A stretch of DNA of 58,950 nt from an uncultured Pseudomonadales bacterium (GTDB taxonomy: Bacteria > Patescibacteriota > Microgenomatia > UBA1400). The stretch covers positions 1 through 58,950 of the forward strand of contig CAZPUR010000004.1 in the NCBI GenBank assembly GCA_964589815.1, given 5' to 3'. Of this stretch, positions 10,562 to 58,352 are shown piece by piece. Numbering within the stretch: the stretch's first letter is position 1; each line of letters opens with the position of its first letter. Under the pieces are notes generated by a model. That model ran no database searches. It was not told the DNA's origin and worked only from the letters and a program-made list of their open reading frames with translations. Both the position numbers and the translations under genes were made by a program.

Positions 10562-10610
10562 AAATTATCATCCAGAGGATGATCGTCCCCTGGATGAGGA
10601 ATTAGAAATT
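10556..10610. repeat. 33-bp palindromic insert flanked by 11-bp direct repeats
   Basis: aattagaaatt (10556-10566) atcatccagaggatgatcgtcccctggatgagg aattagaaatt (10600-10610). Confidence 0.8.
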
Positions 10611-26440: not shown

Positions 26441-27197
26441 GAAGTACCTTAAGTTTAAGAATCTCAGTAAACAAAAAAAATTAGTTCATGGGATTTTTGA
26501 TAAAAATTTTGGCAATTTAAGTCTGAAATATGGGAGCAAGAAAGAAGTAGAAAAGAATAAAAAAAATGTAGCTAAAATTTTAAACATTAATGGACAAAAA
26601 ATCTTTTCTCTTAACCAAATTCATAGCAGTAAAGTTAAAATAATTAAAAAGGATAAAAATTTCTTAAAAGAAGAAAAAGCAGATGCTTTAGTTACCAATC
26701 AGAGGGACATATTTTTAATGATTAAAACCGCCGATTGTTTTCCGGTTTTGATGTTTGATCCCAGGCAAGAAGTAATGGCCGCAATTCACGTTGGTTGGCG
26801 CGGAGCGATCGAAAAAATCTTTTTAAACGTCTTACTGAAAATGATAACCAATTTTAATTGCCGGCCTCAAGACATATTAGTAGCCATCGGTCCGGGCATG
26901 GGCCCCTGTTGTTTTAAACATAGACATTTAATTCAGGAAAAACTACCTGACTGGCAAGAATTCATTAAGGTAGATAAGAATGATTGGAGAACCTTAAACC
27001 TTAGGAAATTTATTGAAGATAAATTAATTGAGGCGGGGATTAGGAAAAACAATATCGAAACAATGGATATCTGTAATAGTTGCAATGCGACCCCGAACAA
27101 TAAATATTCGGGGCAAAGGTTTTTTTCCCATTTACGTAGTTTAAATACGGGTGAGCCAGAAGGCCGTTTTGCCACCATTATTGGTTTAAATGATTGA
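26433..27197 (+). CDS. pgeF: Peptidoglycan editing factor PgeF/YfiH family
   Basis: QIHS, ADALVT, TADCFPV, HVGWRG, IGPG. Confidence 0.88.
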   Translation: MFKKYLKFKNLSKQKKLVHGIFDKNFGNLSLKYGSKKEVEKNKKNVAKILNINGQKIFSLNQIHSSKVKIIKKDKNFLKEEKADALVTNQRDIFLMIKTADCFPVLMFDPRQEVMAAIHVGWRGAIEKIFLNVLLKMITNFNCRPQDILVAIGPGMGPCCFKHRHLIQEKLPDWQEFIKVDKNDWRTLNLRKFIEDKLIEAGIRKNNIETMDICNSCNATPNNKYSGQRFFSHLRSLNTGEPEGRFATIIGLND

Positions 27198-28641
27198 TCT
27201 AAAGAAAATTAAAAAAATTCATTTTACCGGCATTAAAGGTGTGGGTTTAACCGCCTTGGCCTTGGTGGCTAAAGATATGGGTTTTAAGATTTCTGGTAGT
27301 GATGTGGCCGAATCTTTTGTGACTGATGAAGCATTGAAGAAAGCAGGCATTAAGACTCAAATTGGTTTTAATGAGAAAAGAATTAAGGATGCAGATTTGG
27401 TGATTTTTTCTGCCGGTCATGGTGGATCGGAGAATATTGAAGTTCAATCAGCTAGAAAACAGGCAATTCCGATTTTATCTCATGCTCAGGCTTTGGCTTT
27501 GCTGGTAAAGTCAAAAAAAGCCATTTGTGTGGCTGGGGTGGGAGGGAAAACCACGACTTCTTCGATGATTGCTACCGTTTTCCAAGTGGCTGGGGTTCAT
27601 CCCAGTTATGCCATTGGCGTGGGTGGGATTAGACCTTTAGGCCTACCGGCAAAATTTGACAAAAAAGGTAAATATTTTGTGGCCGAGGCGGATGAATATT
27701 TTTCTCCACCCCCAGACTCTAAACCTAAATTTTGGTATCAAAATCCTTTTGTAGCCGTAATTACCAATCTAGAATATGATCATCCTGATGTTTATAAAAA
27801 CCTGGAACATACTTTAAAAGTTTTTGCTAAATTTATTGAAAGGACGCCAAAAGAAGGTTTGGTTCTAGTTTGTATTGATAATCCCAATACAGAAAAGCTA
27901 ATTCAATTTTGGCCAAAGACCAATCGTCCTTTGGACGAAATTAAAGTACCAATTAGTACCTATGGTTTTTCCAGAAAAGCTGATTGGCAAATTACTTTAA
28001 TTGATAAAAGTGAAGAAAAAATCAGTTTTAACTTAAAGTATAAGAATAAAGTTTTCAAGAATATCGAGTTAAATATTCCAGGAGAGTTTAATGTTAGAAA
28101 TGCGGCGGCCGCTTTTGCTGTCGGCCGCTTTTGCGGCATTAGCCCCAGAAAAATCAGGGAAGGGTTAAAGGCCTTTAAGGGTACCCAAAGAAGATTTGAG
28201 CTTATTAGGGAAATCAAGGGGATTAAACTTTATGATGATTATGCTCATCATCCAGTCCAAATAAAAGCAACTCTAAAAGGAGCCAGAGACTGGTTTGGTA
28301 AGAAAAGAATTATCGTTGTTTTCCAACCCCACACTTATAGCCGCACTAAAGCCTTATTAAAAGAATTCAGTTTGGCTTTTAATGAGGTTGACTTAGTAAT
28401 TATTACTGATATTTATGCTTCGGCTCGAGAAAAAGATAATCCTACCATTTCAGGAAGGCTGTTAGCTAAAAAAATAAAAGAACATCAGGCCAATGTGGTT
28501 TACCAGGGTGGGGAGAAAGAAGTGGCCAGTTATTTAGGAAAAATAGCTAAAAAAGGAGATGTAATTTTTACTTTAGGAGCCGGAGATATATTTAAGTGGC
28601 ACAACTCAATTGCAAAAGCAATTGAGAGAAATCAGAAATAA
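27190..28641 (+). CDS. murC: UDP-N-acetylmuramate--L-alanine ligase
   Basis: HFTGIKGVGL, GVGGKTTT, EADEY, YDHPD, RRFE, DDYAHHP, FQPHTYSRT. Confidence 0.96.
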   Translation: MIDLKKIKKIHFTGIKGVGLTALALVAKDMGFKISGSDVAESFVTDEALKKAGIKTQIGFNEKRIKDADLVIFSAGHGGSENIEVQSARKQAIPILSHAQALALLVKSKKAICVAGVGGKTTTSSMIATVFQVAGVHPSYAIGVGGIRPLGLPAKFDKKGKYFVAEADEYFSPPPDSKPKFWYQNPFVAVITNLEYDHPDVYKNLEHTLKVFAKFIERTPKEGLVLVCIDNPNTEKLIQFWPKTNRPLDEIKVPISTYGFSRKADWQITLIDKSEEKISFNLKYKNKVFKNIELNIPGEFNVRNAAAAFAVGRFCGISPRKIREGLKAFKGTQRRFELIREIKGIKLYDDYAHHPVQIKATLKGARDWFGKKRIIVVFQPHTYSRTKALLKEFSLAFNEVDLVIITDIYASAREKDNPTISGRLLAKKIKEHQANVVYQGGEKEVASYLGKIAKKGDVIFTLGAGDIFKWHNSIAKAIERNQK

Positions 28642-54874: not shown

Positions 54875-55747
54875 ATGGATCAAATGGGTCAAAAAAATAT
54901 CGTTGATTTAGACGTTGAACAGCTTCAAGCCAATCCCCTCCAGCCCCGAGGAGTAATTACTTCGGAATCAATTGCTGACTTAGTGGAATCTATTAAACAA
55001 CACGGTGTTTTAGAGCCCTTAGTGGTGGCCCATACGCCGGCCGGTTATCAGATTGTGGTGGGTGAAAGGCGTTGGCGGGCGTCCAAAATTGCCGGCCTTA
55101 AAGATGTTCCCTGCATTGTCAAAGAGACCAGTCCTCAGGGGATGTTGGAGATGGCTATTGTGGAAAACGTCCAGAGAGAGGATTTGAATCCTATTGATCG
55201 AGCTAAGGCCTTTGAACGTTTAGTCGAGGAATTTATGCTTTCCAAGGCAGAGATTGCCAAGAGAATTGGCAAAAGCGCCCCTTATATTTCCAACACCTTA
55301 AAACTGCTTCAACTGCCAGATGCGGTCAAAGATGGTCTGCTTTCAGGTTTGGTTACTGAAGGTCATGCCCGGGCCCTTCAGGGTATTCACGATATGCGTT
55401 TAATGATTGAAGCTTATAAAATGGTTTTGAAAGAATCAGCTTCAGTCAGAAGAACAGAAGAAATAGCCCGAAGAATGAAGCTGGCTTCCGGTCAGCCCAC
55501 AGTTAAATTAGGTGATAAGAGTGAAGCCCGATTAAATAAATTTATTGTTGATGAAAAAGTAGACCAATATGAGGATGAAATGCGCGGGGCTTTAGGTAAA
55601 AAGGTAAAAGTGAGATTGAGAAGGAGTCTAAGGGAAACTAAATTATACATTGGTTTGGTGGGAACGCCCGAAGAAACAGATGAGCAATTAAGAAAACTTC
55701 ACCAGGCGATCTTAGGAATCAGTCCGGAAGCAGAGGGCGGCCAGTAA
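54875..55747 (+). CDS. parB: ParB/Spo0J family protein
   Basis: NPLQPR, GERRWRA, ENVQREDLNP, HTH, GHARAL. Confidence 0.92.
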   Translation: MDQMGQKNIVDLDVEQLQANPLQPRGVITSESIADLVESIKQHGVLEPLVVAHTPAGYQIVVGERRWRASKIAGLKDVPCIVKETSPQGMLEMAIVENVQREDLNPIDRAKAFERLVEEFMLSKAEIAKRIGKSAPYISNTLKLLQLPDAVKDGLLSGLVTEGHARALQGIHDMRLMIEAYKMVLKESASVRRTEEIARRMKLASGQPTVKLGDKSEARLNKFIVDEKVDQYEDEMRGALGKKVKVRLRRSLRETKLYIGLVGTPEETDEQLRKLHQAILGISPEAEGGQ

Positions 55748-56262
55748 CGCAGCCAAGCCCTGCCCACAATATCATCTTTAGAAATGTAACCCCATTCTCT
55801 TGAGTCGCTGGAATGGGAGCGATTGTCTCCAGCCATAAAATATTGTTCTTCAGGCACCACTATTTCTCCACCCTCAGGTAAAAATTGACCGCCCTGAGTG
55901 TAAACATCTTCAGCTAAATAAGCCGATTCATCTAAAAACTTATCATCAATAAAAAATCTTCCTTGTTTTAAACTGACGCTTTCGTTTGGCAGACCAATAA
56001 TTCTTTTAATATAATCATAGCTTTGATTAACCGGAGCTTTAAAGATAATGACATCGCCTCTTTCAGGTTCATGGATACGATAGGTAATTTTATTGGTCAG
56101 CAGATATTCGCCGTTTTCAAAATTGGGCTGCATGGAGTTGCCTTTAACCTGATGGGGCTGGAAAAGAAAGAGGTAGATAATGACGAAAATAACCAGGGCG
56201 GTGACAATGGTTTCAATAAAGTCCAAAATAAAAGCGCCGATGATTCTTAGTATCCGAAACAT
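55699..56262 (-). CDS. lepB: Signal peptidase I
   Basis: GNSMQP, YIKRIIG, GDNRSHSSDSR. Confidence 0.95.
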   Translation of the reverse strand: MFRILRIIGAFILDFIETIVTALVIFVIIYLFLFQPHQVKGNSMQPNFENGEYLLTNKITYRIHEPERGDVIIFKAPVNQSYDYIKRIIGLPNESVSLKQGRFFIDDKFLDESAYLAEDVYTQGGQFLPEGGEIVVPEEQYFMAGDNRSHSSDSREWGYISKDDIVGRAWLRYWPPSASGLIPKIAW

Positions 56263-56329
56263 AATATTTCATTATAAAGGGAAATTAGATTGTGACGCAA
56301 GAGCAATTTTGGTAAAATCATATCTAAAA

Positions 56330-56381
56330 GGGTCCATAGCTTGAGCCAGAGGCTCATCGTCCTCTGGACGGCAGTGGTAGA
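56330..56381 (+). pseudogene. tRNA-Val 5' fragment with palindrome inserted in the D-arm
   Basis: gggtcca-tagct-[tgagccagaggctcatcgtcctctggacgg]-cagtggtaga, ending 3 nt before the GIY-YIG ATG. Confidence 0.7.
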
Positions 56382-56384
56382 TAG

Positions 56385-56636
56385 ATGTTTTACTATGTTT
56401 ATTTACTAATAAGCCTTAAAAACGGGAAAACCTATGTTGGTTTTACGAGCAAACAGCCCCAACAACGTCTGGTAGAACACAACATGGGCGTTAATAAATG
56501 GACAAAGCAAAACGGTCCTTTTAAATTGATATATTGGGAAAAGTTTTTTTGTAAAAAAGATGCCATCATGAGAAAAAAATTTTTTAAAAGTGGACAAGGA
56601 AAGAAATTAAAACAGATAATAGTTAAATATTATTAG
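56385..56636 (+). CDS. Small GIY-YIG nuclease family protein (catalytic Glu apparently replaced by Lys)
   Basis: YYVYLL..TYVGFT..RLVEHN..YWE..AIMRKKFFKSG. Confidence 0.88.
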   Translation: MFYYVYLLISLKNGKTYVGFTSKQPQQRLVEHNMGVNKWTKQNGPFKLIYWEKFFCKKDAIMRKKFFKSGQGKKLKQIIVKYY

Positions 56637-56641
56637 ATTTT

Positions 56642-56713
56642 GGGCTCGTAGCTCAGTGGTAGAGCGTTCCGTTCACATCGGAGAGGTCATAGGTTCAATC
56701 CCTATCGAGCCCA
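56642..56713 (+). tRNA. tRNA-Val(CAC)
   Basis: Acceptor gggctcg/cgagccc, D-arm gctc/gagc, anticodon ttccg-ttCACat-cggag, T-arm atagg-ttcaatc-cctat; CCA not encoded. Confidence 0.95.
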
Positions 56714-56783
56714 CTATTTTAATAATCTAGTTGTTCCCAAAAAATAGATTGTAGTAGAAGGGCAATGTGAAATCGTTCTACCA

Positions 56784-56997
56784 GGGTCCATAATAGCTTG
56801 AGCCAGAGGCTCACCGTCCTCTGGACGGCAGTGGTAGAGCGTTCGGTTCACATCCGAAAGGCCCCCTGGTTCAAATCCAGGCACGGTCACTAGCTTTGGC
56901 AGGCGGGTCCGAAAGGTCAGAGGTTCGATACCTCTCGAGTCCACAAGTCCAGTCTGGCGGGTCGTAGGGGTTGATGGTTCAAGTCCATCTGGACCCA
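56784..56997 (+). other. Composite tRNA-Val relic: interrupted 5' half plus three stacked 3' halves
   Basis: gggtcca, D-arm with palindrome, ttcgg-ttCACat-ccgaa, then T-arms at 56865, 56919 and 56973; final tggaccc-a pairs with the 5' gggtcca. Confidence 0.75.
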
Positions 56998-57011
56998 CAA
57001 ATTAAATAAAC

Positions 57012-57377
57012 TTGCCCAGAAAAAGGTTGATTATATTTGTGAGAGAGAAAGTAGGAAAAAAAAGTAGGGGATGGCTTGTAGGACAGCCAGGCTATGTTGC
57101 TGTTGCCAGAACTAAGGATGGTGAGATTAGAAGAGGTTTTCTTTGTCCCCAATTTACTGTTAACAATGCCCAAAGATATGCAGGGACCTCAGAGCACAAC
57201 TTAAGACGATGTGGTTTTTTAACTAATCTGAATGTGACTGATTTTAATCAAGGAATAGATTGTTTTATTGAAGCCTTAGGATTCCCAGCCAGCAGACTAG
57301 ATAAGGGGATAGAGGCTTTCCATGAGGCGGAATATGGATCAAGAGTAGATGTTCAAGGATTTGATATTGAAGATTAA
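57012..57377 (+). CDS. Hypothetical protein (start uncertain)
   Basis: 121-aa ORF; no family recognised. Confidence 0.45.
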   Translation: MPRKRLIIFVREKVGKKSRGWLVGQPGYVAVARTKDGEIRRGFLCPQFTVNNAQRYAGTSEHNLRRCGFLTNLNVTDFNQGIDCFIEALGFPASRLDKGIEAFHEAEYGSRVDVQGFDIED

Positions 57378-57848: not shown

Positions 57849-58352
57849 ATGAGAAACTTTAACCCAGGTAATAGATCAAGAGACAGAAGAGATTTTCCCA
57901 GAAGGAGTTTTGGCGATAGAGATTCAAGAAGGCCTTCATTATATGATGCAGTTTGTGATGAATGCGGTAAAGATTGCCAAGTGCCTTTTAAGCCAAGCGG
58001 CAAGAAGCCAGTATATTGCAGTGATTGTTTTGAGAAAAAAGGCGGAAGCAATGGTAATAGATCAAGAGACAGAAGAGATTTTCCCAGAAGGAGTTTTGGC
58101 GATAGAGATTCAAGAAGGCCTTCGCAAAGCAATATAAATAATCGCAGCATTTCCCAGCTTGTAGAAAAAATTGAAATTCTAAATACTAGGCTTGATACAA
58201 TTATTGGCTTGCTATCGTCAGCCGGAGAGAAAAAACCAAAGTTAGTAGAGAATAAGACGAAAAAGAGCAAAAAATCAACAATCAAGAAAACAGGTAAAGC
58301 CATTCAAGTGTTAACGCCAGTCGAGAAAAAGATGCCTAAGAAAAAAAGCTAA
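57849..58352 (+). CDS. CxxC-x17-CxxC domain protein
   Basis: YDAVCDECGKDCQVPFKPSGKKPVYCSDCF; GGAG RBS; upstream ttgcta-N18-tatact. Confidence 0.85.
   Translation: MRNFNPGNRSRDRRDFPRRSFGDRDSRRPSLYDAVCDECGKDCQVPFKPSGKKPVYCSDCFEKKGGSNGNRSRDRRDFPRRSFGDRDSRRPSQSNINNRSISQLVEKIEILNTRLDTIIGLLSSAGEKKPKLVENKTKKSKKSTIKKTGKAIQVLTPVEKKMPKKKS
57867..58123 (+). repeat. Exact 71-bp direct repeat inside the CxxC gene
   Basis: 57867-57937 equals 58053-58123. Confidence 0.9.

Follow-up and report, generated by a model that had tools for sequence, protein, structure and literature searches.

Near the end of the 58,950-nt stretch of uncultured bacterial DNA analysed here (contig CAZPUR010000004.1 of assembly GCA_964589815.1, Patescibacteriota; the window, meaning this stretch in full), a gene for a small GIY-YIG nuclease is wedged between a piece of a tRNA 5′ end and an intact tRNA gene, all three on the forward strand, as are the other features described unless stated otherwise. 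The tRNA piece (56330–56381, by direct reading) comprises nt 1–22, split after nt 12 by a 30-nt insert. Its nt 1–12 are GGGTCCATAGCT (56330–56341), read as GGGTCCA-TA-GCT, and its D-loop, nt 13–22, is CAGTGGTAGA (56372–56381). The insert (56342–56371), located after TAGCT at tRNA nt 12/13, consists of two adjacent hairpins, each with a 6-bp stem and a 3-nt loop (TGAGCC-AGA-GGCTCA and TCGTCC-TCT-GGACGG), and is referred to below as a double-hairpin element (DHE), of which this is copy 1. A TAG lies between the end of the fragment at 56381 and the ATG at 56385, and the open reading frame (ORF) of the nuclease, an 83-aa stand-alone GIY-YIG protein of the minimal Slx1/UPF0213-like type (56385–56636; PF01541), thus starts 3 nt past the fragment. 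The intact tRNA-Val(CAC), with acceptor strands GGGCTCG/CGAGCCC (56642 to 56713 or 56714; called by ARAGORN and matched by Rfam with 69.7 bits, E=5e-15), begins 5 nt past the stop codon of the ORF. An earlier sequence-only reading of the window had described this order of tRNA 5′ piece with hairpins, ORF and whole tRNA, including both distances, and it was confirmed by the sequence, ARAGORN and Rfam. We report that the locus is a copy of a cassette that is widespread, has apparently not been described before and is found at the front of tRNA genes in ultra-small bacteria of the candidate phyla radiation (CPR).

The 83-aa protein matched the Pfam GIY-YIG family PF01541 with E=1e-14 and 55 bits (cut-off 22.6), which places it in the GIY-YIG superfamily. 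In an 11-sequence alignment, with homologues 48–72% identical, Y6, Y17, R28, H32 and N33 were invariant and E64 was kept in at least 90%. Profile comparison with the PDB identified BH0048 (1.7e-08) and EF2693 (2.3e-08), both UPF0213 proteins, and SLX1 (6e-03). The AlphaFold model (pLDDT, the predicted local distance difference test, of 95) was closest in Foldseek to BH0048 and then to the Slx1 nuclease domain (template modelling score 0.64–0.69; root-mean-square deviation 2.2–3.0 Å for Slx1), with I-TevI and UvrC scoring far more poorly (E>0.7). With a single domain, a length in the range of about 80–100 aa and UPF0213 and Slx1 as nearest neighbours in both sequence and fold, the protein belongs to the Slx1-like/UPF0213 subfamily. 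The two-domain architecture of I-TevI and the Seg proteins does not apply, as the GIY-YIG domain spans residues 3–64 or more of the 83, and the NCBIfam profile for group I intron endonucleases gave 16 bits against a cut-off of 56. Judging from the model, the nuclease is a bare catalytic domain devoid of a DNA-binding module, and sequence and predicted fold together make it look active and Slx1-like.

Homologues of this protein are numerous, as profile searches found 2,652 clusters (50% identity) at E≤1e-10 and 11,600 at E≤0.001. Relatives were absent from the viral contigs of IMG/VR at both the DNA and the protein level. A phage origin was considered and rejected on this negative result and on the PHROG match, which was only to a generic homing-endonuclease N-terminus, and a role as a defence system was rejected because none of the families in the PADLOC-DB profiles matched. 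A tree of the nucleases showed only partial clustering by tRNA isotype, the protein being too short for firm conclusions.

The DHE is exactly 30 nt long, has the loops CC-ARA-GG and CC-TYT-GG, reads almost alike on either strand and is inserted without target duplication. The sequence-only reading had treated it as a "double-triloop insert" belonging to the D-arm; this had to be abandoned, as it is a separate element which is also found outside tRNAs, in a spacer and in murC. In order to find further copies, a DNA pattern with the loops fixed and the six stem pairs left free was searched in a species-representative genome set. Among the matches, 93 of 96 unconstrained stem positions were paired, 92 of them as Watson-Crick pairs, with two to four pair types per position. 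In a 27-sequence alignment, 98.6% of the cells were paired, with double changes at all six free pairs, a level of pairing reached by 0 of 500 shuffles and nowhere approached by slid registers. This covariation, as read from the aligned sequences, demonstrates either selection for hairpins in single-stranded nucleic acid, be it RNA or DNA, or a mechanism that generates them. The insertion sites follow TAGCT (nt 12/13), TAGCTC (nt 13/14), the AGTT or AATT of the D-loop (nt 17/18) or, rarely, the GGTT or AGTT of the T-loop, and some tRNA fragments carry two DHEs.

The window has four copies: besides the two within tRNA fragments, there is one in a spacer and another in murC. The solitary spacer copy (10568–10597; TCATCC-AGA-GGATGA and TCGTCC-CCT-GGATGA) lies in the 48 nt between genes for GT2 and GT4 glycosyltransferases, and is bracketed by a direct repeat of TTAGAAATT, which may be a target duplication or a coincidence. 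The slightly degenerate copy at 27909–27938 is in frame in a murC-like gene (27190–28641), where it encodes FWPKTNRPLD, and solved MurC proteins are exactly 10 residues shorter at this spot (gaps of 3 and 7); in this it resembles the Rickettsia palindromic elements. Both the spacer and the murC copies follow AATT, as at D-loop sites. Where a DHE interrupts a full-length tRNA, an intact twin with the same anticodon is always nearby. The possibility that the hairpins are tRNA introns was therefore rejected, and the DHE is instead a mark of dispensable tRNA copies. In form and dispersal it fits the definition of the double-hairpin elements of fungal mitochondria, a likeness in kind only. We also observed a second GC-rich hairpin or box, CCyGCCCGCC...GGCGGG, at about nt 23 after the duplicated prefix in several ORF-less loci (L014, L017, L025, L027, L029, L030 and L087), which may be another small element using tRNA fragments.

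The pattern search returned 24 genome loci, in each of which the DHE lay in a tRNA 5′ fragment after TAGCT. The record labels of these loci include Patescibacteria (among them Amesbacteria, Curtissbacteria and Saccharibacteria), an Omnitrophota metagenome-assembled genome (MAG), a Pseudobdellovibrionaceae MAG and several Gammaproteobacteria MAGs, and several MAGs have two or three copies at different tRNAs. Because the same fragment and hairpin design recurs in 24 other loci and the window itself holds a 98% identical repeat of its fragment (see below), the fragment is not a chance look-alike of a tRNA. A GIY-YIG ORF was found directly 3′ of the hairpins in 8 of the 24 loci, in addition to the window and the loci L004 and L006. 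The other genome loci lack an ORF next to the fragment, the distance to the next tRNA being 22–164 nt, and in 9 of 17 that tRNA begins with the same 12 nt as the fragment; inspection of the short, AT-rich spacers of these loci by eye found no remnants of an ORF. Of the loci that hold the protein's nearest homologues, L006 is syntenic with the window (rodA-L21-L27-parB-lepB) and its GIY-YIG protein is 54–56% identical, while L004 has a different neighbourhood. Both have the same order of parts, namely a tRNA 5′ piece with two hairpins, the ORF, a whole tRNA and a distal 3′ strand which pairs with the fragment, and both show compensatory changes in the two hairpin stems.

The association holds when the hairpin is not used as a criterion. 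Loci sampled from metagenomes by protein alignment (80 loci of 332 tblastn-confirmed relatives) gave, together with the genome-derived loci, 68 distinct proteins, and in 53 of these 68 the 300 nt before the ATG include at least one DHE, mostly ending 0–30 nt short of the start codon. The density of DHEs was 7.6 per kb in the 100 nt 5′ of the ATG and zero over the 140 kb at distances of more than 300 nt. Surveyed for flanking tRNA sequence, as the sequence-only reading had suggested, the homologues proved to be strongly associated with tRNA genes, most being directly followed by a tRNA, mainly for Pro and Val but also for Asn, Lys, His, Gly, Asp, Ala, Arg and Met. At about 35 of 66 loci the ORF ends on a stop codon that belongs to the tRNA, either the TAG of U8-A9-G10 or the D-loop TAG of GGyTAGAGC; where the ORF terminates earlier, on its own stop codon, as it does in the window, it is in frame with the tRNA TAG in 6 of 16 cases, which is the chance level and was not counted as evidence. 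Where fragment and tRNA match, the duplicated tRNA prefix measures 17–30 nt. In 25 of 31 loci, a T arm further downstream is immediately followed by a partner for the acceptor strand of the fragment, compared with 6 of 31 in a reversed-sequence control. A target-site duplication was rejected as the source of the prefix, given that the DHE lies inside the duplicated segment, that some fragments hold two DHEs and that the prefix ranges from 17 to 30 nt.

Other arrangements of tRNA pieces were observed among these loci. In L011 (reverse strand, about 335–520 nt past the start of the fragment) a complete tRNA-Pro(TGG) is located inside the anticodon loop of another tRNA-Pro(TGG); the inner tRNA is flanked by a short helix, GAAATGAC / GTCATTTC, and the outer halves would form a cloverleaf with one acceptor mismatch. 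L004 has a similar tRNA within a tRNA, in this case tRNA-Asp. In L010 (5636–5900, forward strand) a unit made of tRNA-Gly nt 1–12, a DHE, nt 13–22 and a spacer of about 62 nt occurs as a tandem pair before an intact tRNA-Gly(CCC), so fragment units can multiply.

Relatives found through homologues of LepB provide the state of the locus without the cassette. In all four (L113, L114, L115 and L116; LepB and ParB 62–76% identical) the parB-lepB neighbourhood is present, with rodA, L21 and L27 also found in L113, L114 and L116, and lepB is followed by the promoter block also present in the window and then directly by tRNA-Val(CAC), within a spacer of 137–170 nt and with fragment, hairpin and ORF all absent. 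The site is filled in the window, in contigs near-identical to it and in L006, so that filled and empty versions of the same site alternate among related genomes, as they do for homing endonuclease genes. The filled L006 (LepB and ParB 48–50%) is more distant from the window than the empty relatives are, which makes the distribution patchy and implies either independent gains or several precise losses. The parB (forward) and lepB (reverse) genes converge and overlap by 49 nt at their 3′ ends (55699–55747), as they also do in L007, L113, L114 and L116.

The sequence-only reading had proposed an insertion at the 5′ side of the tRNA with restoration of the gene, and had pointed to the lepB-tRNA junctions of relatives as a test. 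Comparison of these junctions revealed the empty sites just described, and a fragment without the gene was not found at this locus in the relatives, so an insertion on the 5′ side which leaves a whole tRNA is borne out. The restoration fares less well, because the intact tRNA-Val of the window is identical in sequence to the native gene of L114 and the fragment derives from a different tRNA-Val allele, as judged from the acceptor strands (GGGTCCA in the fragment, GGGCTCG in the intact gene).

Further pieces of tRNA-Val lie downstream of the intact gene and had escaped the sequence-only reading, as had the difference between alleles: a second hairpin-bearing tRNA-Val copy, almost complete in length, with its own promoter (56741–56889) and two 3′ fragments. 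The copy starts with a second, diverged promoter and leader (56741–56783), about 73% identical to 56282–56329 (repeat families D3 and D5; pairwise alignment), and continues as a tRNA-Val(CAC) pseudogene (56784–56889), identified by direct reading, repeats and alignment, in the order GGGTCCA, a 3-nt insert, a DHE, D-loop, anticodon arm (TTCACAT) and T arm. Its DHE, copy 2, lies at 56799–56828 (TGAGCC-AGA-GGCTCA and CCGTCC-TCT-GGACGG), and 56793–56838 repeats the first fragment with 98% identity over 46 nt. The 3′ strand of the pseudogene, CACGGTC, is unable to pair with its own 5′ strand, GGGTCCA, and its 3′ part is similar to the tRNA-Val allele of the relative L116. The Rfam match of the pseudogene to tRNA is below threshold (25.7 bits, cut-off 29), and ARAGORN calls a tRNA-Val here once the DHE is removed in silico. 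The first 3′ fragment (56900–56943), ...CCGAAAGGTC-AGAGG-TTCGATA-CCTCT-CGAGTCC-A when read against the intact tRNA, is a piece of a third tRNA-Val-like allele. The second (56944–56997; inverted repeat I1 and acceptor-partner search) reads GATGG-TTCAAGT-CCATC, followed by TGGACCC (56990–56996) and A; TGGACCC is the exact Watson-Crick partner of the GGGTCCA in both 5′ fragments, which places the 3′ end of the first fragment's own allele about 350 nt downstream. One intact gene is thus surrounded by pieces of at least three tRNA-Val alleles.

Rfam 15, scanned over 56200–57100 at E≤10, matched only tRNA and tRNA-like noise, including an antisense tRNA-like match at 56937–56998, and left the fragment with its hairpins (56330–56381) unmatched. 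A tmRNA or YrlA-like RNA at 56784–57000 was considered and rejected, as ARAGORN found no tmRNA and the Rfam tmRNA matches were insignificant; the fold z-score of this region (-3.3) is accounted for by the tRNA arms and hairpins. A 94-aa ORF on the minus strand (56714–56998), annotated as a gene in the public contigs L001 and L007, lies wholly over tRNA fragments and hairpin debris, is Pfam-negative and is very likely a spurious gene call. Further on, a 167-aa zinc-finger ORF (57849–58352; Pfam zf_Tbcl_2 on a public contig) holds two near-identical copies of NRSRDRRDFPRRSFGDRDSRRPS, a repeat mirrored by a 156-aa ORF on the opposite strand which is probably spurious.

Promoter-like sites were found on both sides of the nuclease gene by consensus scan. 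The upstream site (56290–56318; TTGTGA-17 nt-TAAAAT with a TG-extended -10) is 12 nt 5′ of the tRNA fragment, and the block to which it belongs, TTGTGAyGCAAG...TGGTAAAAT, is also found directly 5′ of tRNA-Val in the empty-site relatives L113 and L114. Its conservation at empty sites indicates that it is the native tRNA-Val promoter of the locus, which makes transcription of the ORF from it plausible. A second promoter-like site, TGGACA-18-GATAAT (56591–56620; 10 of 12 matches), lies inside the 3′ end of the ORF, its -10 ending 21 nt ahead of tRNA nt 1. A TTGGnA-16-TATAAT site is present at the equivalent position of the ORF (codons ~70–79) in 15 of 43 homologous loci; the conserved coding stretch G-K-K-x-K-K-x-I-I doubles there as a sigma-70-like TTGGnA-16-TATAAT, which ends 8–26 nt before tRNA nt 1.

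Taken together, these loci define a canonical unit in three parts: a displaced piece of a tRNA 5′ end, which starts at nt 1, reaches about nt 17–30 and is always interrupted by one or two DHEs; an ORF for a minimal Slx1/UPF0213-like nuclease of about 83 aa, 0–30 nt after the hairpin; and a complete tRNA, into which the ORF usually runs, ending on U8-A9-G10 or on the D-loop TAG. We consider it somewhat more likely than not, on comparison of sequences, that a selfish, homing-type cassette occupying the 5′ end of tRNA genes carries the GIY-YIG gene as its cargo. Empty sites, the use of many tRNAs, tRNA debris, DHE insertions and ORF-less remnants are signatures of selfish DNA rather than of a housekeeping operon.

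A possible mechanism would be as follows. The cassette would be transcribed from the promoter of the resident tRNA, while expression of the tRNA itself would be maintained by the second promoter, located within the 3′ end of the ORF. The nuclease would cut cassette-free tRNA alleles in the conserved D-arm, probably aided by DNA shape as for Slx1, and repair with a cassette-bearing allele of the tRNA species concerned as template would copy in the ORF together with enough tRNA sequence for a whole gene, leaving the displaced 5′ piece of the resident upstream. The host would survive because a whole tRNA is always retained. Where the stop codon lies inside the tRNA, RNase P processing would remove it, which may result in a non-stop message and low nuclease output. 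The DHE would be a small insertion in its own right, targeted to ARYT sites, with the cassette nuclease probably responsible for its mobility; it would survive only in tRNA copies that can be spared, in spacers and in protein loops that tolerate it.

Several points weigh against a homing-type cassette. The mechanism is wholly inferential, with cleavage, target site and mobility all predicted from sequence, and all GIY-YIG homing endonucleases characterised so far differ from a protein of just 83 aa that lacks a DNA-binding domain. The presumed D-arm target persists in the intact tRNA next to the cassette, which leaves self-immunity unexplained. A move of the cassette to another tRNA species should, under every scheme of repair or recombination that we tried, yield a chimeric tRNA with mismatches; nevertheless at least 10 isotypes are occupied, with the fragment usually matching the local tRNA. 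No relatives were found in the viral contigs of IMG/VR, in DNA or in protein, nor was a vector for horizontal spread. Furthermore, the identity between the GIY-YIG proteins of the window and L006 (54–56%) is about that of LepB and ParB (48–50%), so that residence by vertical descent over a long time, with precise losses, fits no worse than repeated gain.

The alternative that comes closest, although we regard it as unlikely, is that the DHE is the real mobile unit, comparable to miniature inverted-repeat transposable elements or repetitive extragenic palindromic (REP) sequences and inserting after ARYT; the GIY-YIG protein would serve it as a structure-specific nickase or "transposase", by analogy with RAYT for REP or TnpA for the hairpins of IS200/IS605. 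The tRNA fragments would be collateral, because the tRNA D-arm and T-loop simply happen to hold AGCT, AGTT and GGTT. Such a hairpin transposon would account for DHEs that have no ORF (in genome loci, in the spacer and in murC), for insertion of exactly 30 nt always after TAGCT, CAGTT, CAATT or GGTT with no target duplication, for fragments with double DHEs and DHEs in T-loops, and for the near-constant adjacency of DHE and nuclease gene; the Slx1-like fold also suits it, as Slx1 cuts branched and hairpin DNA (PDB entry titles). However, it leaves unexplained the duplicated tRNA prefix, the fixed reading-frame junction of the ORF end with tRNA nt 1–10 and the constant position of the ORF between fragment and tRNA. 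A second end of the element is not evident, and ARYT is very common at 37% GC, yet there are only four DHEs in 59 kb. It also overlaps with a homing-type cassette instead of excluding it. Still less probable is a stable operon that benefits the host, with a role for the nuclease in the metabolism of tRNA or other RNA. The fragment and hairpins would form a structured leader that regulates or stabilises the mRNA, for example by pairing with the 3′ acceptor strand of the tRNA into a tmRNA-like "mRNA inside a tRNA". The ORFs are intact and keep their catalytic residues over about 50% divergence, the stems are under structural selection with fixed orientation, the acceptor strand of the fragment nearly always has a 3′ partner in cis (including the nested cases of the window, L006 and L004), the window and L006 have kept the locus despite their distance, and a fusion of GIY-YIG with TrmH, the tRNA Gm18 methyltransferase, is known from the literature (PMC1564403). 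A host operon is nevertheless difficult to reconcile with closer relatives that lack the cassette altogether, with cassettes at many different tRNAs, with broken tRNA copies and pile-ups of alleles, with DHEs in a protein-coding gene and a spacer, and with the frequency of ORF-less remnants.

The remaining explanations appear far weaker. Scars of integrase islands or a random tandem duplication at the tRNA, with the GIY-YIG gene there by chance, would be in keeping with the two tandem tRNA 3′ fragments (about 56900–56997), which are what integrative elements typically leave, and with the duplication of promoter and 5′ part over about 100 nt. We nevertheless hold this to be very improbable, as no recombinase is found among the neighbours (parB, lepB, a conserved 121-aa ORF and the zinc-finger ORF) and the arrangement recurs in dozens of independent loci in a fixed frame relation to the tRNA; moreover, a cassette of about 0.3–0.7 kb with no integrase, and with the tRNA 5′ end as the part duplicated throughout the family, does not have the makings of an integrative island. 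Equally hard to credit is a split or intron-containing tRNA, in which the transcript would lose the hairpins, or the ORF together with the inserted tRNA, so that a functional outer tRNA results. The two acceptor strands of the outer tRNA, 5′ and 3′, do pair in the window, L006 and L004, and L011 has its inner tRNA-Pro in the anticodon loop of the outer one. However, Rfam found no group I or group II intron, or any other intron family, in the region at E≤10, and the interruption is in the D-arm rather than in the anticodon loop. Every full-length tRNA that bears hairpins stands beside an intact copy with the same anticodon, most fragments end at nt 17–30 with the adjacent intact tRNA offering the only matching 3′ strand at canonical loci, and the outer copy in the window lacks a matching set of arms; with a complete tRNA downstream, splicing is not needed. 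Finally, the 12–17 tRNA-derived nt and the double hairpin could, by analogy with HEARO or omega RNA and IscB, guide the nuclease as an RNA. This would suit a structured, RNA-like element that always adjoins a nuclease lacking a DNA-binding domain and in which a conserved scaffold is preceded on its 5′ side by a variable segment matching the target. We rate a guide RNA as most improbable too, since a single domain of 83 aa has no obvious room for a guide and for duplex opening, the hairpins are alike on both strands and also occur in coding sequence, which fits an element acting as DNA, and no precedent for it is known.

We tentatively put forward a bolder reading, which we consider less likely than not: the bare 83-aa nuclease and the 30-nt DHE would form a two-part mobile system, with ORF cassettes as autonomous and hairpin copies as non-autonomous members, which would recognise the conserved tRNA D-arm by ARYT or by DNA shape, rebuild a whole tRNA behind it and, through a stop codon located in the tRNA, tie nuclease expression to tRNA processing. 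If true, this would provide the first biological role for the UPF0213/YhbQ-type family and an undescribed class of bacterial mobile element. The 3′ ends of tRNA genes are the classic landing pads of integrase islands; a homing-type cassette would be, if confirmed, a tenant of the tRNA 5′ end which keeps the gene whole by duplication and not by att-site recombination. UPF0213/YhbQ-type proteins are very common, and a large subfamily of them now has a precise genomic context. How a nuclease so small could find tRNA genes is relevant to research on structure-specific nucleases. The DHE also has practical consequences for the annotation of CPR genomes, as it breaks tRNA gene finders (ARAGORN missed the second copy in the window), yields spurious calls over tRNA debris, such as the 94-aa ORF, and accounts for 10 extra residues in MurC.

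In the open literature we came across no description of a GIY-YIG cassette at tRNA 5′ ends or of a bacterial DHE, most subscription journals being outside the coverage of our search. Among bacterial elements, the DHE resembles REP sequences and bacterial interspersed mosaic elements with their RAYT, the palindrome-associated transposable elements of IS200/IS605 and the Rickettsia palindromic elements, in that all are small dispersed palindromes linked to one nuclease or transposase gene. They share a short target motif used without duplication and, with the Rickettsia palindromic elements, in-frame insertion in protein genes. They differ in relying on an HUH/Y1 transposase where the DHE is linked to a GIY-YIG protein, and the DHE prefers sites inside tRNA sequences.

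In its predicted working, the cassette most resembles a free-standing homing endonuclease gene. Phage T4 encodes a GIY-YIG homing endonuclease of this kind, SegB, within its tRNA gene cluster (PMC2330249). The cassette is similar to this type in that a GIY-YIG gene lies among or beside tRNA genes, in that presence and absence alternate in related genomes and in its expected manner of spread, which would be cleavage of a gene-free allele followed by repair from a gene-bearing one. However, SegB-type proteins exceed 200 aa and have a C-terminal DNA-binding domain, whereas the cassette protein is a bare 83 aa and nearer to Slx1/UPF0213 than to I-TevI. Unlike genes of the SegB type, the cassette ORF overlaps the tRNA, borrows its TAG and is preceded by a duplicated tRNA 5′ piece, and the cassette belongs to the chromosomes of CPR bacteria, IMG/VR having yielded no relatives in phages.

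Fungal mitochondria offer two further parallels. Partial C-terminal duplications of atp6 and cob are found there beside degenerate homing-endonuclease ORFs (PMC6279837). In these, as in the cassette, a piece of the target gene is duplicated beside an endonuclease ORF while a complete copy is kept, the logic of restoration being our own reading. The duplicated piece is the 3′ end of a protein gene in fungi and the tRNA 5′ end here, and both the protein family and the host domain differ. The mobile ORF of Allomyces atp6 is reportedly a similar case. The mitochondria of chytrids and fission yeasts also contain double-hairpin elements, described as potentially mobile (Paquin et al. 2000, as cited in PMC10085805). 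As far as that secondary account goes, they are short and GC-rich, have two adjacent hairpins, are dispersed in spacers and structural RNA genes and are thought to be mobile, all of which recalls the bacterial DHE. The latter differs in being exactly 30 nt long, in its ARYT sites, chiefly in the tRNA D-arm, and in its tight linkage to a nuclease gene, and kinship in sequence is not to be expected.

The protein itself has its closest known counterparts in the minimal, Slx1-like stand-alone form of the GIY-YIG domain described by Dunin-Horkawicz et al. (PMC1564403). BH0048, EF2693 and E. coli YhbQ, which are of this type, share with the cassette protein the minimal single-domain fold and the catalytic motif (PMC1564403). 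An association with tRNA genes or hairpins was not reported for the UPF0213/YhbQ family in that study (PMC1564403), and it is this association that defines the cassette subfamily.

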